From assembly GCA_046583315.1 (NCBI GenBank), contig JAYGCN010000223.1, forward strand, positions 1 to 10,749: DNA of 10,749 nt, in the 5' to 3' direction. The translations under genes were made by a program, and so were the position numbers. The notes beneath the pieces are model-generated. The model had not been told where the DNA came from. It saw nothing but the letters and a program-made list of their open reading frames with translations, and made no database searches. Origin of the DNA: Candidatus Hydrogenedentota bacterium. GTDB taxonomy: Bacteria > Hydrogenedentota > Hydrogenedentia > Hydrogenedentales > GCA-2746185. The stretch's first letter is position 1. Each line of letters begins with the position of its first letter. Shown here one piece after another: positions 2,451 to 10,748 of this stretch.

Positions 2451-4007
2451 ATGAAGCGTTTCCTGTTGTTTATCTTGTGCACCTCCATCGTCACAATCGA
2501 TGCCTCCGCCCAACGCGTCACGTTTACCAAAGACGTTGCGCCCATTTTTTTCGAACACTGCGTCGCGTGCCATCGCCCTGACGAAATCGCGCCCATGTCG
2601 CTACTCACCTACGAATCCGCGCGACCCTGGGCCAAGTCCATCGCCAAAGCCGTCGGAAACAAAGACATGCCGCCCTGGAGCGGTGACTCGGATCACCGAA
2701 AATGGTCCAACGACATTTCCCTCAACGACGAACAAATCGAAACCATCGTGAAATGGGTGGAGCAAGGCGCTCGCGAAGGCGACCCGAAGGCACTCCCGGA
2801 ACCACCAACATTTCCTGAGACCTGGGTCCTCGGCGAGCCGGACTACATCGTGCATCTCAGCGAAGTCGTCGTACCGGCAGACGGCGAAGACCTCTTCCCA
2901 AAAGAAACCATCGAAATCGAAATCGACGAGCAACAATGGGTTCGTGCCATCGAATTCATGCCCGGGGATCGACGCGTCGCCCATCACATTCAGACCACCT
3001 ACAACAACGGTAAAGTAAAAACAGGTGCTTTGGACGGTGCTCAGGTCGGTATCCTCGCCATCTGGACCGCCGGTATGTCCCCATTCGAATTTCCCGAAGG
3101 AGTCGGACGCATCTTGTCTCCCGGAGCGCGCATTAACGTCGACTCCCATTACCATCCCTACGGAGAAGCCACCACAGACAACACGCGAATCGGACTCTAC
3201 TTCGGCAAAGGCGAGCTGAAAAAAGAAGTCAGTACCTTAAGTGTCGCGAACATGGGTATTCGCATTCCCCCCGGCGCCGCGGCGCACCCGGAGACAGCCT
3301 TCCACGTATTCGATCGCGACATGCAGATTCTCGCCTTCAGTCCGCACCTCCATGTGCGCGGAAAATCCATGCGCTACGACCTCACCTACCCCGACGGTCG
3401 CGTCGAAACCTTGCTCGACGTGCCCAAATACAACTTCAACTGGCAATGGCAATATTACCCCACCGAACCCATCGACGTACCCGCCGGTAGCCGGGTCGAT
3501 GTCACCGGCGTCTGGAACAACTCCGAAGGCAACCCCTTCAACCCCGACCCCACCCAGGAAATCATCTATCGCGGAAACACCTTCAATGAAATGTTCGTCG
3601 GATTCATGGAAGTCATCGAAAAAGACGGTGTCTATCTGAATCCCCCCGTCGCCAAAGACAAACTCATCGACCTGCTCAAGGCCCACCCTGCTGACGAATC
3701 ATTCTACTTCGGCGGATTCCTGCCCTTTGGCGTTTACGCCCCTAAGGAACCTGGCAAAGAAGGCATGATGTATATCGTCAACGGCTCCATCATGTTCACC
3801 ATCAGCCTCGACGATTTCTTTTGGGATGGCGATCACTTGACCATTAATACCCAGCTACCCACCCCAGAAGCCAGCGCAACAACAACCACGGTTACCGGTG
3901 AACTAAACGACAAGGGACAGCTCAAGGGAACCCTGCACTACGGCATCGATTCCCCACGCCCCCTCAAAGTACCCGCACTCGGCGTACCGATGAGTCAGCT
4001 GAATTAA
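2451..4007 (+). CDS. Secreted protein with an N-terminal c-type heme domain and a copper type II (PHM/DBH-like) monooxygenase domain
   Basis: Sec signal peptide (MKRFLLFILCTSIVTIDASA). Heme motif CVACH at 2559-2573 and 'DMPPW'. Copper-ligand pattern HH (H178/H179), HYH (H233/H235), PHLH (H299/H301) and EM (M381), plus 'YNFNWQ'. GGAG lies upstream of the ATG. Confidence 0.8.
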   Translation: MKRFLLFILCTSIVTIDASAQRVTFTKDVAPIFFEHCVACHRPDEIAPMSLLTYESARPWAKSIAKAVGNKDMPPWSGDSDHRKWSNDISLNDEQIETIVKWVEQGAREGDPKALPEPPTFPETWVLGEPDYIVHLSEVVVPADGEDLFPKETIEIEIDEQQWVRAIEFMPGDRRVAHHIQTTYNNGKVKTGALDGAQVGILAIWTAGMSPFEFPEGVGRILSPGARINVDSHYHPYGEATTDNTRIGLYFGKGELKKEVSTLSVANMGIRIPPGAAAHPETAFHVFDRDMQILAFSPHLHVRGKSMRYDLTYPDGRVETLLDVPKYNFNWQWQYYPTEPIDVPAGSRVDVTGVWNNSEGNPFNPDPTQEIIYRGNTFNEMFVGFMEVIEKDGVYLNPPVAKDKLIDLLKAHPADESFYFGGFLPFGVYAPKEPGKEGMMYIVNGSIMFTISLDDFFWDGDHLTINTQLPTPEASATTTTVTGELNDKGQLKGTLHYGIDSPRPLKVPALGVPMSQLN

Positions 4008-5305
4008 TTCGGGAGTACCGCTTTCGAAAACGAGGCCAGCCAGACGTCCACAACTTTCGGATCTTCCGGTACCCGCAGTCGTCGCGTAGTCGGACTATAA
4101 GACGGATATCCGCCCACGTCGTCCTGGCTATCGATTATTCCGCCTGTTCTATCGCGCACCGTGGCAACAATACGCGCATCAATGGGATCCCGATCGCCCG
4201 GTCGCGCACCAACATTCTGCAAAACCCATTCAGTCGTATCGGAGGACAACCGACTGACCAATCCCTCCGGCCAAAGCGGCGGCTCATCCAATTCTACGAC
4301 AATCGCGTAGGCGATCTCCGCCGCAACACCGTTCTGGTCCCAGGCAACATTGTCGTGCATATATACATCCCCGAACGGCCCAAGCATGTGCAACCCATTA
4401 AGCGTATCAACGCCATGATACAAAACATTGCCTACAATGCTGAACCGACCATTCTCCGGCGTCAACCCCGTACCCACCCATTCGCTCTGCACATAGAACA
4501 ATTGTATCGCCCAGCTGCCCGGGTTATAGATGACATTATTCACAATGACCCCGGTCGTAAACGCCTTAAAATAAGGATTGCGCTGATCGTTGTGCGCATA
4601 CAAACACCCTATGATCGAAACGTCCCGCACGAAATCATGGATCAGCGATCCCTTCGAATGAGGCCCCTTTGCATGACTCGAATCATCCAACCCTTCGGCA
4701 ATGATGCAGTGACTAAACGTGATGCGATGCGACGTGGCATCGGGGCCTTCCGTCGCCGGACCCGACGCGCTCAGATTTTCATCCACGGCCCAGGTCAACG
4801 AACAATGGTCGATTACAATATTGAACGCGTCGCCACCACTCGTTGAAATGCCGTCCGGCTCCCAGCCGCTTCCTTTGGGTTGACCAGCATCCCCCGGACG
4901 AATGCTGATATGCTGCATCAGCACGTCGTGCGTAAAAATGGTCAAGCCACCCTTGATAATCGTGATACCCGGACTCGGCGCGGTTTGTCCCGCTATCGTG
5001 ATAAAAGGTTCGCTGATGGACAGGCCGCGTTGTTGTAAATCAATGACGCCGCCGACTTCGAAAACGACAATGCGCGGCCCAGCGGTCTCCAGTGCTTCAC
5101 GCAACGACCCCGCACCCGATTCAGCAAGCGAGGTAACGCGAATCACCTGACCCCCGTTTCCCGCCACCGTGTCCGTCCCGAAACCAACGAGACTCGGAGA
5201 CGCACTACTATCGGAGTCCGAGCACCCCGAGCAAGCCACAACGAATACCAGGCACAGCCAAAAAGAGCGGCGCGCCGACACGGTAGTTTTGTTCAATGAT
5301 GCCAT
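4004..5305 (-). CDS. Pectate lyase-like parallel beta-helix protein (polysaccharide lyase family 1), probable lipoprotein
   Basis: PL1 motifs 'GFGTDTVAGNGGQVIRVTSL..SGAGSLREA', 'GPRIVVFEVGGVI', 'TIAGQTAPSPGI', 'IDHCSLTWAVDE' and 'HNDQRNP'. The N-terminus has RR, a hydrophobic stretch and a lipobox-like VVAC/CSGC. Confidence 0.87.
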   Translation of the reverse strand: MASLNKTTVSARRSFWLCLVFVVACSGCSDSDSSASPSLVGFGTDTVAGNGGQVIRVTSLAESGAGSLREALETAGPRIVVFEVGGVIDLQQRGLSISEPFITIAGQTAPSPGITIIKGGLTIFTHDVLMQHISIRPGDAGQPKGSGWEPDGISTSGGDAFNIVIDHCSLTWAVDENLSASGPATEGPDATSHRITFSHCIIAEGLDDSSHAKGPHSKGSLIHDFVRDVSIIGCLYAHNDQRNPYFKAFTTGVIVNNVIYNPGSWAIQLFYVQSEWVGTGLTPENGRFSIVGNVLYHGVDTLNGLHMLGPFGDVYMHDNVAWDQNGVAAEIAYAIVVELDEPPLWPEGLVSRLSSDTTEWVLQNVGARPGDRDPIDARIVATVRDRTGGIIDSQDDVGGYPSYSPTTRRLRVPEDPKVVDVWLASFSKAVLPN

Positions 5306-5385: not shown

Positions 5386-8300
5386 CTATCGCGAGGGCTG
5401 GCTCGATTTCAGACGCGCACGAACATTGCGCCAATTCTTCATAGCCGCAATCGTATGATTATGATTCTCCCCATAACGCTCCCGGAAGATGATGGTGGCC
5501 TTCTTGAAGTACTTCTCGGCTTGGGGCAGGTCGCCCTTCAAATTGAGTAGGTTGCCCACGTTCAACAAGTTGATTGCGACCTTCGGATGCGCCTTGCCGT
5601 AAACAATCTCATTGATTTCGCGCGCGTTCTCAAAATAGTCGTATGCAGAATCTATATCACCCAGATTCTGCATGATCAGACCCAGATTATTGTAGCTCTG
5701 CGCCACATACGGATGTTCCTTACCATGAATCTCCGCATCAATTTTCACCGCACGCAAATAATAATCCTTCGCCGTCGTCTGATCCCCCATCCGCAACAAC
5801 AGTCCCGCCATATTCTTGACGACATAGGCCTTCATCGGATGGTTATCTGCCAACGTCTTCTCGGCAATCTCCAAACCGTTACTGTACTGATCCCACGCTT
5901 CCGTGAGATCTTCCAACTCCTGCGCAACGAGCCCCAGATTGGTGTAATCACGACACACCGCCTCGTGATCCGCGCCTTTGAGCTTGATATCCATCTCAAG
6001 CGCACGCCGATACGCTTGACGCGCACCAGAGTAATCCTCCAAATCCATGCAGATGTTCCCAATCTGCTGCAACGTACTCGCCATTTCCTCGGTACCCTTG
6101 CCGCGCCCTTTCTCCAGAATCTCAAGTGCGCGTTCATATTCCGTGCGTGCACGCTGGTTGTCACCCTGCGCGCGATACACATTGCCGCTGTGCAGATACA
6201 TCTCCGCGATCTTTTTGTGCGTCGGACCCAGAACCTTGATGCGCTCTTCAATCGCATAGCGGCACGCACTCGAAGCGCGCACATAATCCGCCTTCATCCA
6301 AAGATACGTCGAGATATACAGCCAAAGACTGCTCGTAATCACTGAATCGACCGGTGCTGTTTTGACCACACGAAGGTAATCGGCAATATGCGGTACCAAC
6401 CAGCCGTTCTCATGAATCTGCTGCACCTGATCGGGTTCCGGCACGAGCTCCTCGTAAAATCTACCCATCAGATCCGCCCAGGCAACGGTCGACTTCTGCT
6501 CCCAACGGGCCGATCGCAGCAACATCGTCGCCTCTTCGTTCCCCTCCGTTTCTTCCGCCTCAAGATCCAGTTCAAGCCAGTAAAGCACCGCCTGTTTGAT
6601 GCCCGGCGTCACGGAAACCCGCTCATCCTCAAGCAAAATCAATTTGTAACTCTTCAACAAGGTAAACAGTTCATTAAACTTGCGCGGATTCTGAAGCGTC
6701 TTCTTGAGTGCCCGCGGGAAGGGCTTGGCTCCCGACACAACATACGACACCGGGAACGGTCCATCCCCCAAATACGTCAGGGCTTTCATTAAATCCAGAG
6801 CGATCGGATTTTCATCCCGGACATGCTTGAGCGACACAAGAACCGCCGTACGGATAACCGATATCGGATTCAGCGCGGGATTGGCCACGCCCCATATTTT
6901 CCGGTGCTCCGCCACAAACATATCATAATATTGGTCATAACCAACTTTGGCCTGAACCATATAGTCCGACGCAAGCATCAACGCCAGCACCGTATCACTC
7001 AGCGAAGCCGCCAGCGCCGCTGCTGCCCCTTCACTGCGAATTTTTGTACTACTAAAAAGTAGCTCAACGGACTCCTGCCTGTTCAACGTAGGCATCGATA
7101 TCGGATTCGCTTCTTTGGGCCACTGCGCAGAGTTTGTTGTAGAAAGAACATGGCCCGAATGCTCCCTGGGCAAATATTCCCGAAGTACTTTCCAATTCCG
7201 AACGTCATCAAATATAATCAGCCAACTCGTGTTGAGTTCCAGCCACCTCTTCAATGCCGCCAGTCGAATATTTATCTTGGCCGTTGACTTCTCTTCCAGG
7301 CCCAGCTTATCAACCAACTCGCTCAAGTCTTCCTGGATGCTCACCCGGCTGGAACCGCGCACCCACCATACGACCGAATAATTCGACTTGTTTAGGTTCG
7401 CAAATTCCACTGCCAACTGCGTCATCCCAATACCGATACTGTCCGGCGCCGGGTTGACCATCGTGACAAAACCACCCTGAACATTGATGCGCTGCCGCAT
7501 TTTTTCAAGCAACAGAGAACGGCCCACGTAATGCGAGGCCATGCGCCACGGCACGCTCCAAATCGTATCCTTCAACTTGGGAACCTGCGCCTTTTTCTTG
7601 CGCTTGAGACGTGTCGATGTCGCTTTACGCCGCGGTTTGCCCCGTAATTCTTCGCACTCCTGCAGCAACAGCACGCGCGCTTTTTCGCGCGTCTGTTTCA
7701 CCAGATCAATATAATTGTTCGTGCCAAAGGTCGAAGCCATATTTACACAATTGAGCACCATCACCGGGAACGGTGCCCAACGACCATCATGCAACGCCAT
7801 AATCCACTCGGACTGACCGTGTACGGCATCCAGGTAATACGGCGATGCCACTGCGATCGATTTAATTCCCCGATTCGTCTGCTTCAACAACTGCCGCAAC
7901 GTTTCGTGCGGGTCATTGGAGTCCCAAGGCAGCTTCCGCGCGTTATACCCCACACCCGTCAACAAATGATACAGCCACTCTGCCCACTGCTCATCCATCG
8001 GTACATAGTGAATATAAAAATCCAGCTCATCCTTGGGCAACGGCGGCGGCGTCATCTGCGCAATGCCATCCATATTTCCCGGAGGAGGCGTATCCGCCGA
8101 CAGTGCCGATTCAGCAAACGACTGCTGCATGAACGTAGGGGTCACTTCCGCCAACGGCGGCTCATCGGACGCGCCGCCTGCTGAACCCAGCGAGGTCGGA
8201 GTCATTGGAATTGACGAGTTTTCAATCGCCGGAATCAACGACCCCACGCCCAACGAATCCGGAACATCAACGGGTAGCGGGCGAACGGTATCCTCCAGAC

Positions 8301-9126
8301 TAATCGTCTCGTCATCAGACTGTTCCCAATCGTCCAACGCGCTAATCAGATCCAATGCCGAGGTGTACCGCATCTTCGGATCTTTGCTCGTCGCCTTCAT
8401 GATAATTTTTTCAAGGCTGGAAGAGACATCCGGGCGAAGCTCACGCACTTTCTGCATCGGACGATTTATGATCAGATGCATCAACGCCGCCGGATTGCTC
8501 GCCTTGAATCCGGGCGTACCCGTGAGCAACTCAAAAAGCGTCACCCCTAAGGCATACGTGTCCGTCGCAATGCCCGCCGCACCCCCTTCAAAAAGTTCCG
8601 GGGCCATATACCGCGGGGTCCCGAGATGATCACCCGCCATCGTGAGCTCCGCATTGCTCTCCGTAAGGCGTGCCAGACCAAAATCCGCCACCTTCAATAG
8701 CATGTCATCGTTCACCAACAAATTGGCCGGTTTGATATCCCGATGAATTATTCCCTTCGGATGCGCCTTGCTCAGCGCACCCGCCGCTTGGCGAATCAAA
8801 TCGACCGCAAGATCAATCTCCAGCGGACCACGCGACTGGAGTAATTCCGCCAGATTCTGCCCCTCCACCAGCTCCATCGCTATATAATAGTGACCGCCAT
8901 CCTCCCCGATCGCGTACACCGTGACCATGTTCGGATGATTCAAGGTCGCCGCCACCATCGCCTCACGTTTGAAACGGGTGACCAGGTCGGGATGTTCTTT
9001 AAGGTGAGCAGGAAGAATTTTTAAGGCCACATGGCGACCAAGCGTCGGATCAAGTGCCTTGTACACGATGCCCATGGCACCGCGTCCAAGCTCTCCAACC
9101 ACTTCATATCCTGCAATTGTTTTCAT
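5386..9126 (-). CDS. Multidomain Ser/Thr protein kinase - TIR-like - degenerate NB-ARC (STAND) - TPR repeat protein
   Basis: Intact Hanks kinase motifs (GRGAMGIVY, VALK, HRDIKPAN, DFG, GTPRYMAPE) at about 9126-8330. TIR_2-like 'DFYIHY..DEQWAEWL...ASPYYL....QSEW' from about 8022. NB-ARC-like 'IWSVP....YVGR...GIGMTQLAVEFA....YSVVWWV...WLIIFDDV' at about 7563-6900. C-terminal TPR array. Confidence 0.9.
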   Translation of the reverse strand: MKTIAGYEVVGELGRGAMGIVYKALDPTLGRHVALKILPAHLKEHPDLVTRFKREAMVAATLNHPNMVTVYAIGEDGGHYYIAMELVEGQNLAELLQSRGPLEIDLAVDLIRQAAGALSKAHPKGIIHRDIKPANLLVNDDMLLKVADFGLARLTESNAELTMAGDHLGTPRYMAPELFEGGAAGIATDTYALGVTLFELLTGTPGFKASNPAALMHLIINRPMQKVRELRPDVSSSLEKIIMKATSKDPKMRYTSALDLISALDDWEQSDDETISLEDTVRPLPVDVPDSLGVGSLIPAIENSSIPMTPTSLGSAGGASDEPPLAEVTPTFMQQSFAESALSADTPPPGNMDGIAQMTPPPLPKDELDFYIHYVPMDEQWAEWLYHLLTGVGYNARKLPWDSNDPHETLRQLLKQTNRGIKSIAVASPYYLDAVHGQSEWIMALHDGRWAPFPVMVLNCVNMASTFGTNNYIDLVKQTREKARVLLLQECEELRGKPRRKATSTRLKRKKKAQVPKLKDTIWSVPWRMASHYVGRSLLLEKMRQRINVQGGFVTMVNPAPDSIGIGMTQLAVEFANLNKSNYSVVWWVRGSSRVSIQEDLSELVDKLGLEEKSTAKINIRLAALKRWLELNTSWLIIFDDVRNWKVLREYLPREHSGHVLSTTNSAQWPKEANPISMPTLNRQESVELLFSSTKIRSEGAAAALAASLSDTVLALMLASDYMVQAKVGYDQYYDMFVAEHRKIWGVANPALNPISVIRTAVLVSLKHVRDENPIALDLMKALTYLGDGPFPVSYVVSGAKPFPRALKKTLQNPRKFNELFTLLKSYKLILLEDERVSVTPGIKQAVLYWLELDLEAEETEGNEEATMLLRSARWEQKSTVAWADLMGRFYEELVPEPDQVQQIHENGWLVPHIADYLRVVKTAPVDSVITSSLWLYISTYLWMKADYVRASSACRYAIEERIKVLGPTHKKIAEMYLHSGNVYRAQGDNQRARTEYERALEILEKGRGKGTEEMASTLQQIGNICMDLEDYSGARQAYRRALEMDIKLKGADHEAVCRDYTNLGLVAQELEDLTEAWDQYSNGLEIAEKTLADNHPMKAYVVKNMAGLLLRMGDQTTAKDYYLRAVKIDAEIHGKEHPYVAQSYNNLGLIMQNLGDIDSAYDYFENAREINEIVYGKAHPKVAINLLNVGNLLNLKGDLPQAEKYFKKATIIFRERYGENHNHTIAAMKNWRNVRARLKSSQPSR
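5410..6345 (-). repeat. Array of about 7 protein-level 42-aa TPR repeats (TPR_10/TPR_12, kinesin light chain-like) within the kinase gene
   Basis: Recurring unit A..Y.RAL.I.....G..HP..A..Y.NLG......GD at 42-aa period, e.g. AKDYYLRAVKIDAEIHGKEHPYVAQSYNNLGLIMQNLGDIDS. The repeats are diverged at the DNA level. Confidence 0.88.
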
Positions 9127-9129
9127 TAC

Positions 9130-9276
9130 TTAATTCCAGTGCAATATGCAACAGGCACCTATGGAACCGGTCATGTTGATGTCTGCACCGTTGTTCAGGG
9201 TGATATCGGCTATAGCCGATACGCATAACACGAACGAGAGTGCAGGGATTAATACTAACGAGTTGCGATATGACAT
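9130..9276 (-). CDS. Small 48-aa ORF with a signal-peptide-like N-terminus (small secreted peptide or truncated gene remnant)
   Basis: Hand translation: MSYRNSLVLIPALSFVLCVSAIADITLNNGADINMTGSIGACCILHWN*. A strong SD (ACAGGAG) lies 7 nt before the ATG. There is an h-region and an AIA|D cleavage-like site. The TAA lies 3 nt before the kinase ATG. Confidence 0.55.
   Translation of the reverse strand: MSYRNSLVLIPALSFVLCVSAIADITLNNGADINMTGSIGACCILHWN
9204..9221. promoter_or_regulatory. Perfect 18-bp palindrome, possible operator
   Basis: TATCGGCTATAGCCGATA is its own reverse complement and lies about 80 nt upstream of the kinase start. The palindrome is directly visible, but a regulatory role is inference. 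Confidence 0.35.
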
Positions 9277-9504
9277 GGATTTACTCCTGTTTTAAATGTA
9301 CTTTAACGCTTACAACCATCTTCATTTCTTAACAAGACTAGAATAATAACCTAAATATATTGCGGCACCCTTTCAATTACATGACGATTGGGTGACAAAC
9401 TGGTGAATACAGGGAATAGATAGGCTCTGGAGACGGCTCTATGGGTGATGCTAGGGGCTAGGGTTGGATACTAGCAGGCGAGATAAAGGGCCAGTAGCGT
9501 GTTC

Positions 9505-10097: not shown

Positions 10098-10748
10098 CTA
10101 AGGCCTATCACTCGGTTTCTCTTCTACACGAGCCGATGATAGGACTGGCGATATGTACTTGTAATTCGTATTCTTGATGTAGTCTCTAACCTCTGTACCC
10201 TCAGCGACACCGATTCGTTCGTACGTAAATTCATTTTCGGAAAGTGTTGCATTTATTTTGTTGACAATAAATTCAAACTGCTCGCCGAGCCCGGTCGTCT
10301 TGTTCCCGGCATCATCAATTATTATCCTGTGCCACTCATATCTCAACGGTATCCACACGCCATCTACTTCTTGATACGAAATATCGCATTGTTCACCGTA
10401 ACGACCATTGAGCCACTCAATATGGCTTAAGTTGCCACCTCTCCAGAGTGAGAATTCCATATCCATAGTATTCACGCCATCGTCTGTGTATACGTAAAAT
10501 CGAATGTCTTCCTGCCGAACCGAAACCGACTTTGTAGAATTTCCTCTACGGATCTCAAACGCTTCGCGAAGTATATCGGGAAACCCAATGTGAAACTTTG
10601 ATCTGAAATAGTCCATAGGATGAAAATTGGGCGGGAAAGAGCTCGTAAACGTGGCAGGTATTTTCCCCCGATGCCAAATTCGCAAAATACTTTCTGAATC
10701 ATAAGGCATCAATTCAGAATACCGGTCACCCGCTATCAACGTGGCTTC
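10098..10748 (-). CDS. Hypothetical protein, 5'-truncated by the window edge; beta-rich, possibly LolA/outer-membrane-lipoprotein-sorting-like fold
   Basis: The frame is open to the window end (EATLIAGD...), so the TTG at 10739 is probably not the true start. At least 216 codons in lower-GC DNA. The 'YQEVDGVWIP...VNKINATLSENEFT...GTEVRD' pattern resembles C-termini of LolA-like hypothetical proteins (inference). Confidence 0.7.
   Translation of the reverse strand, partial: EATLIAGDRYSELMPYDSESILRIWHRGKIPATFTSSFPPNFHPMDYFRSKFHIGFPDILREAFEIRRGNSTKSVSVRQEDIRFYVYTDDGVNTMDMEFSLWRGGNLSHIEWLNGRYGEQCDISYQEVDGVWIPLRYEWHRIIIDDAGNKTTGLGEQFEFIVNKINATLSENEFTYERIGVAEGTEVRDYIKNTNYKYISPVLSSARVEEKPSDRP

Follow-up and report, generated by a model that had tools for sequence, protein, structure and literature searches.

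Domain organization of a kinase-TIR-STAND-TPR protein

We analyzed a window of 10,749 nucleotides (positions 1 to 10,749 of contig JAYGCN010000223.1, from a Candidatus Hydrogenedentota bacterium), which contains one long open reading frame (ORF) on the minus strand, free of internal stops, whose product joins a Hanks-type Ser/Thr kinase, a TIR domain, a STAND module and a tetratricopeptide repeat (TPR) solenoid in a single chain (Table 1). A first-pass annotation, made from the sequence of the window, had read it as an NLR-like receptor with the order kinase-TIR-STAND-TPR; Pfam, an AlphaFold2 model and structure matches all agree with this layout. The four modules (a Hanks kinase, a TIR domain, a STAND of the Apaf-1/NB-ARC type and kinesin-light-chain-like TPRs) are real and lie in one ORF.

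Table 1. Features of the kinase-TIR-STAND-TPR gene; positions are those of the window.
Feature	Residues	Window positions	Strand	Evidence
Whole ORF (P0001): kinase - linker - TIR - pseudo-NB-ARC - helical arm - TPR	1246 aa	5386..9126	-	
Hanks-type RD Ser/Thr kinase	7-267	8326..9108	-	Pfam, motifs
Acidic, Ser/Thr/Pro-rich linker	268-366	8029..8325	-	
TIR domain with remodeled pocket	367-495	7642..8028	-	Pfam, model, alignment
Flexible Lys/Arg-rich linker, low pLDDT	496-524	7555..7641	-	Sequence, model
Degenerate AP-ATPase/NB-ARC STAND module (NBD, helical domain, winged helix)	525-860	6547..7554	-	
Degenerate Walker A; Met568 (codon 7425-7423) replaces Lys, and the motif's first two glycines are also lost		7417..7449	-	
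Helical arm, least conserved of the folded parts	861-965	6232..6546	-	Identity, model
TPR solenoid, 42-residue period plus capping helix, KLC/LGN-like		5407..6231	-	Pfam, model, structure matches

Pfam places Pkinase at residues 7-256 (E 2.9e-52), TIR_2 at 370-482 (35.1 bits, above the cut-off of 28), NB-ARC at 565-690 (21 bits, under the cut-off of 23.5) and TPR_12 in six stretches, with TPR repeats beginning at about residue 972. A sequence search against solved structures gave weak TIR matches only. The AlphaFold2 model of residues 363-1241, built from a 119-row alignment, has a mean predicted local distance difference test score (pLDDT) of 93.9, and its first Foldseek match is the STAND-TPR structure 6mfv. 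The model aligns with Apaf-1 (Z 29.2, root-mean-square deviation (rmsd) 4.1, 415 residues aligned), with the NB-ARC of NRC1 (Z 25.8, rmsd 3.1, 305 aligned) and with the TPR of KLC1 (Z 24.3, rmsd 2.3, 223 aligned; KLC1 and LGN TPRs range over Z 23-24); the Apaf-1 and NRC1 matches indicate a STAND fold composed of nucleotide-binding domain (NBD), helical domain and winged helix. Modeled alone, the TIR domain reaches a pLDDT of 94.2 and is closest to PdTIR (Z 12.8, rmsd 3.0, 124 aligned), a cryptic TIR (Z 12.2) and AbTir (Z 11.5), ahead of the first non-TIR row (10.1). Both the TIR domain, assigned in the first pass to the region 8022-7650, and the STAND module therefore model as the folds claimed for them.

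The linker between kinase and TIR is weakly conserved and far shorter in distant homologues; its TP motifs are retained in the four closest ones. We rejected an assembly chimera because the identical fusion occurs in 15 other proteins, including those of genomes G005 and G013. The protein is likely cytoplasmic, as annotated: we found no typical hydrophobic stretch that could span a membrane, and the highest 19-residue hydropathy (1.77) falls within a STAND helix.

A STAND module without the P-loop lysine

The P-loop of the window protein reads GIGMT, with Met568 at the position of the catalytic lysine. This Walker A Lys is missing from every kinase-fused homologue (0/16) and from the wider clade (0/28), and is present in 163/163 other matches; it is replaced by varied residues (L, M, A, R, T, and V), a pattern of lost constraint. 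The kinase-less members of the clade (n = 9) were themselves chosen as Lys-less top matches, and only the count among the kinase-defined proteins is independent of the feature. Other NTPase residues have gone as well. The hhTSR Arg (which we take to be the sensor-1 residue) is found in 0/15 kinase-fused proteins compared with 151/163 others, and is N665 in the window protein; the winged-helix His motif (presumably MHD) has His in 10 of 15 proteins and T840 in the window protein, and the Arg-Leu that follows this His is lost too in the clade alignment. The Walker B Asp (D640) is kept in 14/15. The clade has also newly fixed several residues in this module, for example N579, H741, K809, W850, and E852. 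By its sequence, then, the STAND module is degenerate, is not an active NTPase and is predicted to be a dead ATPase; the first-pass annotation had missed the degeneracy.

P-loops of this kind are seen elsewhere in the phylum. Genome G000 encodes a paralogue that has NB-ARC and TPR but no TIR, and whose P-loop is degenerate (C46:27608-30211; L025:5606-8119, minus strand); further TIR-less clades also lack the Lys (family f5, eight rows with GxGT[TS]Q); P-loop loss may therefore have occurred more than once in Hydrogenedentota.

A remodeled TIR pocket

Glu440, in the QSEW motif, falls in the catalytic-Glu column of the alignment (helix C), where the first-pass annotation had expected it. This Glu is retained by the window protein and its closest homologues, but by only 8/16 of the kinase-fused proteins, compared with 109/117 other matches. 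The rest of the pocket is remodeled. The beta-A Ser, present in 106/112 others and 7/9 kinase-less relatives, is replaced by His (His373) in 16/16 kinase-fused proteins (19/19 with fragments included); at this position His is found in 1/9 kinase-less clade members and is not among the common residues of the 112 others. The BB-loop Gly, which we equate by position with G174 of AbTir, is Pro406 in the window protein, and Gly remains in at most 2/19 kinase-type proteins compared with 98/112 others. At the WxxxE position (the column in which the Trp of TLR15's TIR aligns) the window protein has His436; His occupies it in 12/19 kinase-type proteins, and Phe or Tyr in 91/115 others. Of the AbTir mutants, E208A has lost its activity, G174A shows very little or none, and W204A is less active than the wild type (10.1101/2022.05.07.491051).

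NADase activity is thus unlikely as a function of the family, given that only half of its members have the Glu and that the Ser, the BB-loop Gly and the WxxxE aromatic residue are replaced, though the window protein itself may retain some; the TIR domain is likely no longer an NAD-cutting effector. For the same reasons the two outputs proposed in the first pass, phosphorylation and NAD+ cleavage, fare differently: the kinase is intact, but the TIR output is doubtful. We found no second TIR partner in the genome, where the window TIR is the sole TIR_2 match.

Kinase and TPR sensor

The kinase is intact and is the best-conserved domain. As the first-pass annotation had it, all motifs are present (Gly loop, K36, E55, HRD at 128-130, N135, DFG at 148-150, APE, and R253), and the catalytic ones are intact in all 16 homologues wherever the sequence covers them; the activation-loop residues T162 and T170 occur in at least 90% of the 16 rows. 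Mean pairwise identity, calculated over 13 of the 16 homologues (P0002, P0049, and P0107 were left out), is 48% for the kinase, 39% for the C-terminal TPR, 38% for the helical domain, 36% for the NBD, 33% for the N-terminal TPR, 32% for the TIR, 30% for the winged helix, and 24% for the arm.

The TPR solenoid is modeled as seven helix pairs closed by the capping helix. Its conserved residues (R1059, D1060, K1104, N1105, H1138, N1147, K1182, and N1189) include Asn, Lys, Arg, and His, as in the peptide-binding TPRs of KLC and LGN. In close homologues the TPR is conserved to the same extent as the kinase (76% versus 73% and 70% versus 66%). We also tallied variants of the gene in four marine sequencing runs, mostly in one run (39 in-gene variants of the 40 shown, out of 87 differences): the listed codon changes comprise 29 synonymous and 9 non-synonymous ones, distributed (synonymous:non-synonymous) as 16:1 in the TPR, 8:4 in the NB-ARC, 4:1 in the kinase, 1:2 in the arm, and 0:1 in the linker. 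This tally, a weak guide, gives no sign of a diversifying sensor. A conserved TPR fits a conserved ligand, whether from host or phage.

Genome G000 encodes about 16 Hanks kinases in all, and three Ser/Thr kinase genes stand in tandem at C207:5237-12351.

Distribution and descent

After removal of three duplicates and one fragment without a P-loop, we counted 16 kinase-TIR-NB-ARC proteins, three fragments that start in the kinase tail and nine kinase-less relatives. A homologue of 63% identity is labeled Candidatus Hydrogenedentes, and G005 is a Hydrogenedentota genome of the same family as the genome of the window; the runs that contain this DNA are mainly marine metagenomes. Pattern scans with the single protein recovered no related loci, and those with a three-row alignment recovered one metagenome locus and two genome loci. 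A profile of the TIR plus NB-ARC, run on 135 genomes of the phylum, matched 31 of them at E 1e-40 or better; 10/135 match strongly across the full TIR plus NB-ARC, the remainder being TIR-less or more distant paralogues. The full kinase fusion is found in G000, G005 and G013, and only the kinase tail in G003; all four belong to family f1, so that kinase-type proteins occur in 4/14 genomes of this family (completeness 72-99%), and none was found in four family genomes of 94-97% completeness.

A quick tree of 50 rows separates 26 Lys-less sequences from 24 intact ones with a Shimodaira-Hasegawa-like approximate likelihood ratio test (SH-aLRT) support of 100, and a further branch (SH-aLRT 83) sets the 17 kinase-type rows apart. 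With this tree rooted on the intact relatives, we infer that a TIR-AP-ATPase-TPR ancestor probably lost its P-loop and later gained a kinase once, an order made tentative by the long branches of a quick tree.

The record of G013 is labeled Nitrospirales, yet the genome set places G013 in the family of the window, a probable labeling conflict.

Relation to known systems

For the TIR, NB-ARC, and TPR parts, the nearest family is that of the FxsT-type TIR-AP-ATPase-TPR proteins (NF040586; Kaur et al., 2020, PMC7159879), which have the same module order and were described together with FxSxx systems. Such proteins are common, with 489 representatives reaching E 1e-30 or better and others in the ESM Atlas. 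The kinship had been suspected in the first pass, and the window protein indeed scores 251.5 bits on NF040586, though below the cut-off of 300; it differs by its missing P-loop, its added kinase and its remodeled TIR pocket. The absence of an FxSxx system, also noted in the first pass, holds beyond the window: the FxsB model TIGR04269 reaches at best 29 bits in the 96.7% complete genome (cut-off 370), with no FxsB in the window, and the family scans of the window matched no FxSxx gene, the short peptide gene itself not having been searched for. Judged by its residues and this score, the window protein is an NLR-type receptor in layout that falls outside both the active STAND NTPases and FxsT.

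Kinase-TIR fusions of another STAND class are already catalogued. Pkinase+TIR+nSTAND1+sensor proteins, for example EDM78150.1 (Plesiocystis), TMC23062.1 (Chloroflexi), and WP_151729819.1 (Thermogemmatispora), are given by Kaur et al. (2021, PMC8195603, Figure 2 source data 1, 14 places); like the window protein they carry kinase then TIR before a STAND and a C-terminal sensor in a single chain, but the STAND is of the nSTAND1 class and the sensors are beta-propellers, beta-helices, or FilH. Pkinase+TIR+AP-ATPase+TPR is absent from all 14 places of that source file. More widely, the literature and its supplements yielded no entry of this architecture and none from Hydrogenedentes, within supplements covered in part, where a prior listing is possible. 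The placing of kinase and TIR before a STAND is uncommon, as the first-pass annotation supposed, but not new.

Kinases joined to STAND modules without a TIR are also known. PknK of M. tuberculosis, a Ser/Thr kinase whose role is regulatory, is counted among the STAND proteins (PMC9045387), many kinase/NB-ARC/TPR clusters are found in the ESM Atlas, and P0160 is a protein of this kind with an intact GKT; in these proteins no TIR lies between kinase and NTPase, and in P0160 the motifs are intact. Inactive STANDs have likewise been catalogued: iSTAND and iSTAND2 (PMC7159879, PMC8195603) and KpAvs8 (PMC13581612) combine a STAND fold with degenerate Walker motifs and a sensing role that is proposed or shown. 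The iSTANDs belong to MoxR-vWA operons, but neither MoxR nor vWA genes were seen among the neighbors scanned at window-type loci with flanks, some of which are short; Avs8 is a different family, and the covered text on these proteins describes no kinase plus TIR. The effector-STAND-TPR layout is shared with Avs/AVAST and bNACHT bacterial NLRs, of which bNACHT01 requires its Walker A Lys for defense (10.1101/2022.07.19.500537; for general background only, see 10.1101/2020.01.06.895854).

Genomic neighborhood

The genes around the window-type loci are largely metabolic or housekeeping, and differ at all nine loci with flanks. In the window they encode a glycosyltransferase-like membrane protein, an enoyl-CoA hydratase, a cytochrome/monooxygenase-like protein, and a PelZ-like pectate lyase; in G013 an adenylosuccinate lyase, a DAGK-family kinase, and a PQQ dehydrogenase; in G003 PrpD, a second kinase, and DegT, with a XhoI nuclease about 7.5 kb away; in G099 GGDEF and purine genes, with HNH and PD-(D/E)XK genes at 3-4 kb; in G119 a release factor and PrmC; and in G021 sugar genes. 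The gene upstream of P0004 we take, from its sequence, to be uvrA. No neighbor is common to the loci except for one multi-copy family; the apparent synteny with the cytochrome/monooxygenase-like gene (in G000 and G003) was rejected as chance because G000 holds 39 paralogues of it. PADLOC (2023; its library is older than Avs7-24) gave no Avs/NLR model match for the non-kinase part, only a generic TPR match, and its kinase matches, PD-T4-6 and MAD6, were rejected as generic because an unrelated kinase scores similarly. Of the two roles left open in the first pass, signaling or anti-phage, the second thus gets little support from gene context.

A probable ligand-gated kinase on a pseudo-NLR scaffold

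The lost Walker A Lys and the remodeled NAD pocket make a ligand-switched kinase likely, rather than a two-weapon anti-phage protein. That the protein is a Ser/Thr kinase gated by a ligand, carried on a pseudo-NLR scaffold that works without nucleotide, we regard as probable, whichever purpose it serves; that it serves cell signaling, as a cytoplasmic kinase switched by a ligand, is the reading we prefer, tentatively and with confidence a little short of even. Sequence and models show the folds, an intact kinase, and the loss of NTPase residues; the ligand, the clustering and the activation are what we infer. The TPR groove would bind a conserved protein or peptide, more likely a cellular one than one from a phage; binding would open the nucleotide-independent NB-ARC/arm; NB-ARC contacts together with TIR-TIR contacts would then cluster the molecules; and the tethered RD kinases would cross-phosphorylate their activation loops (T162/T170) and then targets in the cell. 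RD kinases are activated when clustering leads to phosphorylation of the activation loop.

Several observations weigh against this reading. Gly565, Gly567, and the Walker B Asp are still there, so that weak nucleotide binding is possible. The window protein and seven others keep Glu440, the W204A change in AbTir lowers activity rather than abolishing it, and the TIR is 63-72% identical among close homologues, conservation that implies some role for it. The patchy distribution is typical of defense genes, and a nuclease gene lies within about 8 kb at 2/9 loci (a raw count). The G003 homologue (L022:3050-3830, C59) starts in the last kinase helix, with unrelated, GC-rich DNA upstream, which may be either a real loss of the kinase or an assembly fault. 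Support for the kinase clade is only SH-aLRT 83, and the variant tally covers 39 of the 87 differences, chiefly from one run.

The same mechanism might instead be defensive, with the TPR sensing a conserved phage protein and the kinase acting as a toxin in abortive infection, an ATP-independent receptor akin to Avs. The patchy presence without synteny and the two loci with nuclease genes agree with this, Avs sensors bind conserved folds and would be compatible with a conserved TPR, the ancestral TIR-AP-ATPase-TPR class has been treated as one of conflict proteins (PMC7159879), and KpAvs8 sets a precedent of degenerate Walker motifs in a capsid-sensing family (PMC13581612), itself a further point against our preferred reading. 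Against it stand the seven of nine loci without a defense island, the generic PADLOC matches, and the fact that every match to the full TIR plus pseudo-NB-ARC for which there is a genome comes from one phylum, whereas defense genes usually spread widely. Defense remains a live possibility on the strength of the patchy presence and of KpAvs8, though we judge it unlikely. We hold it clearly improbable that two live effectors, kinase and TIR NADase, are switched on together by oligomerization, as the first-pass annotation proposed: the TIR fold is confirmed, the window protein and its closest homologues keep the Glu, and kinase+TIR fusions recur in conflict systems (PMC8195603), but Glu is lost in 8/16, Ser has become His in all, and the BB-loop Gly and the WxxxE aromatic residue are replaced. 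To the same improbable degree, the TIR pocket could have been repurposed as an input site that controls the kinase, with His373, His436, and Glu440 binding a metal, a nucleotide signal, or the phosphorylated linker; the gain of His373, invariant in the kinase type and almost confined to it, supports such a site, because decay is not expected to yield an invariant residue, but His436 (12/19) and Glu440 vary, and a single residue may be structural.

A decaying relic, an NLR losing its function to which a kinase became attached by chance, would account for the lost NTPase motifs, the patchy presence, and the missing kinase in G003. It is nevertheless very improbable, and long-term conservation has largely refuted it: proteins only 26-40% alike have kept open frames of 1100-1250 aa, the clade has gained residues of its own, and synonymous changes prevail among the listed codons. 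A bolder combination is rather unlikely, namely that an immune receptor, having lost its ATP switch, gained a kinase and became a nucleotide-free receptor kinase whose TIR pocket was rebuilt around the invariant His as a ligand- or phospho-binding control site; if true, it would mean TIR-to-kinase signaling within one bacterial polypeptide, on a receptor body without NAD+ or ATP turnover.

NLR/STAND proteins are thought to switch by exchange of ADP for ATP. Here a lineage has long kept a whole NLR body without a P-loop, together with an enzyme whose activity is easily read out. Should TPR gating of the kinase persist, the protein would offer a simple system in which to study NLR switching without nucleotide, and to learn whether a bacterial TIR can, like those of animal Toll signaling, serve as a clustering module without enzymatic activity. 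The organism is uncultured, and tests would therefore need to be heterologous. More generally, annotations of TIR plus NB-ARC overcall defense genes where active sites go unchecked.

Other features of the window

Upstream of the gene there is no Rfam match, and promoter and terminator scans stayed at chance level (7 versus 5.9 and 6 versus 6.5, respectively). An open-ended ORF of 216 aa (10098-10748, minus strand) lies in a low-GC stretch (42-44%); it matches no family meaningfully and lacks paralogues. On the plus strand, 2451-4007 encodes a protein with CxxCH heme motifs, presumably resembling copper monooxygenases, that belongs to a large expansion (39 matches in the genome). The PelZ-like pectate lyase gene (4004-5305, minus strand; 520 bits, below the cut-off of 840) is 80 bp downstream of the kinase-TIR ORF on the same strand, and none was seen beside other members of the family. 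Just upstream of the kinase-TIR ORF, a dispersed repeat of about 250 bp (9163-9410, read on the minus strand) has seven partial or full copies elsewhere in the genome, several of them close to contig ends. Within it lie a ribosome-binding site and a signal-peptide ORF of 48 codons (9276-9130) that ends just before the kinase start; an untruncated relative lies on contig C44. Contig depth is in the hundreds at the repeat, compared with about 5 over the gene, and upstream of 9161 the sequence differs in relatives from two runs.

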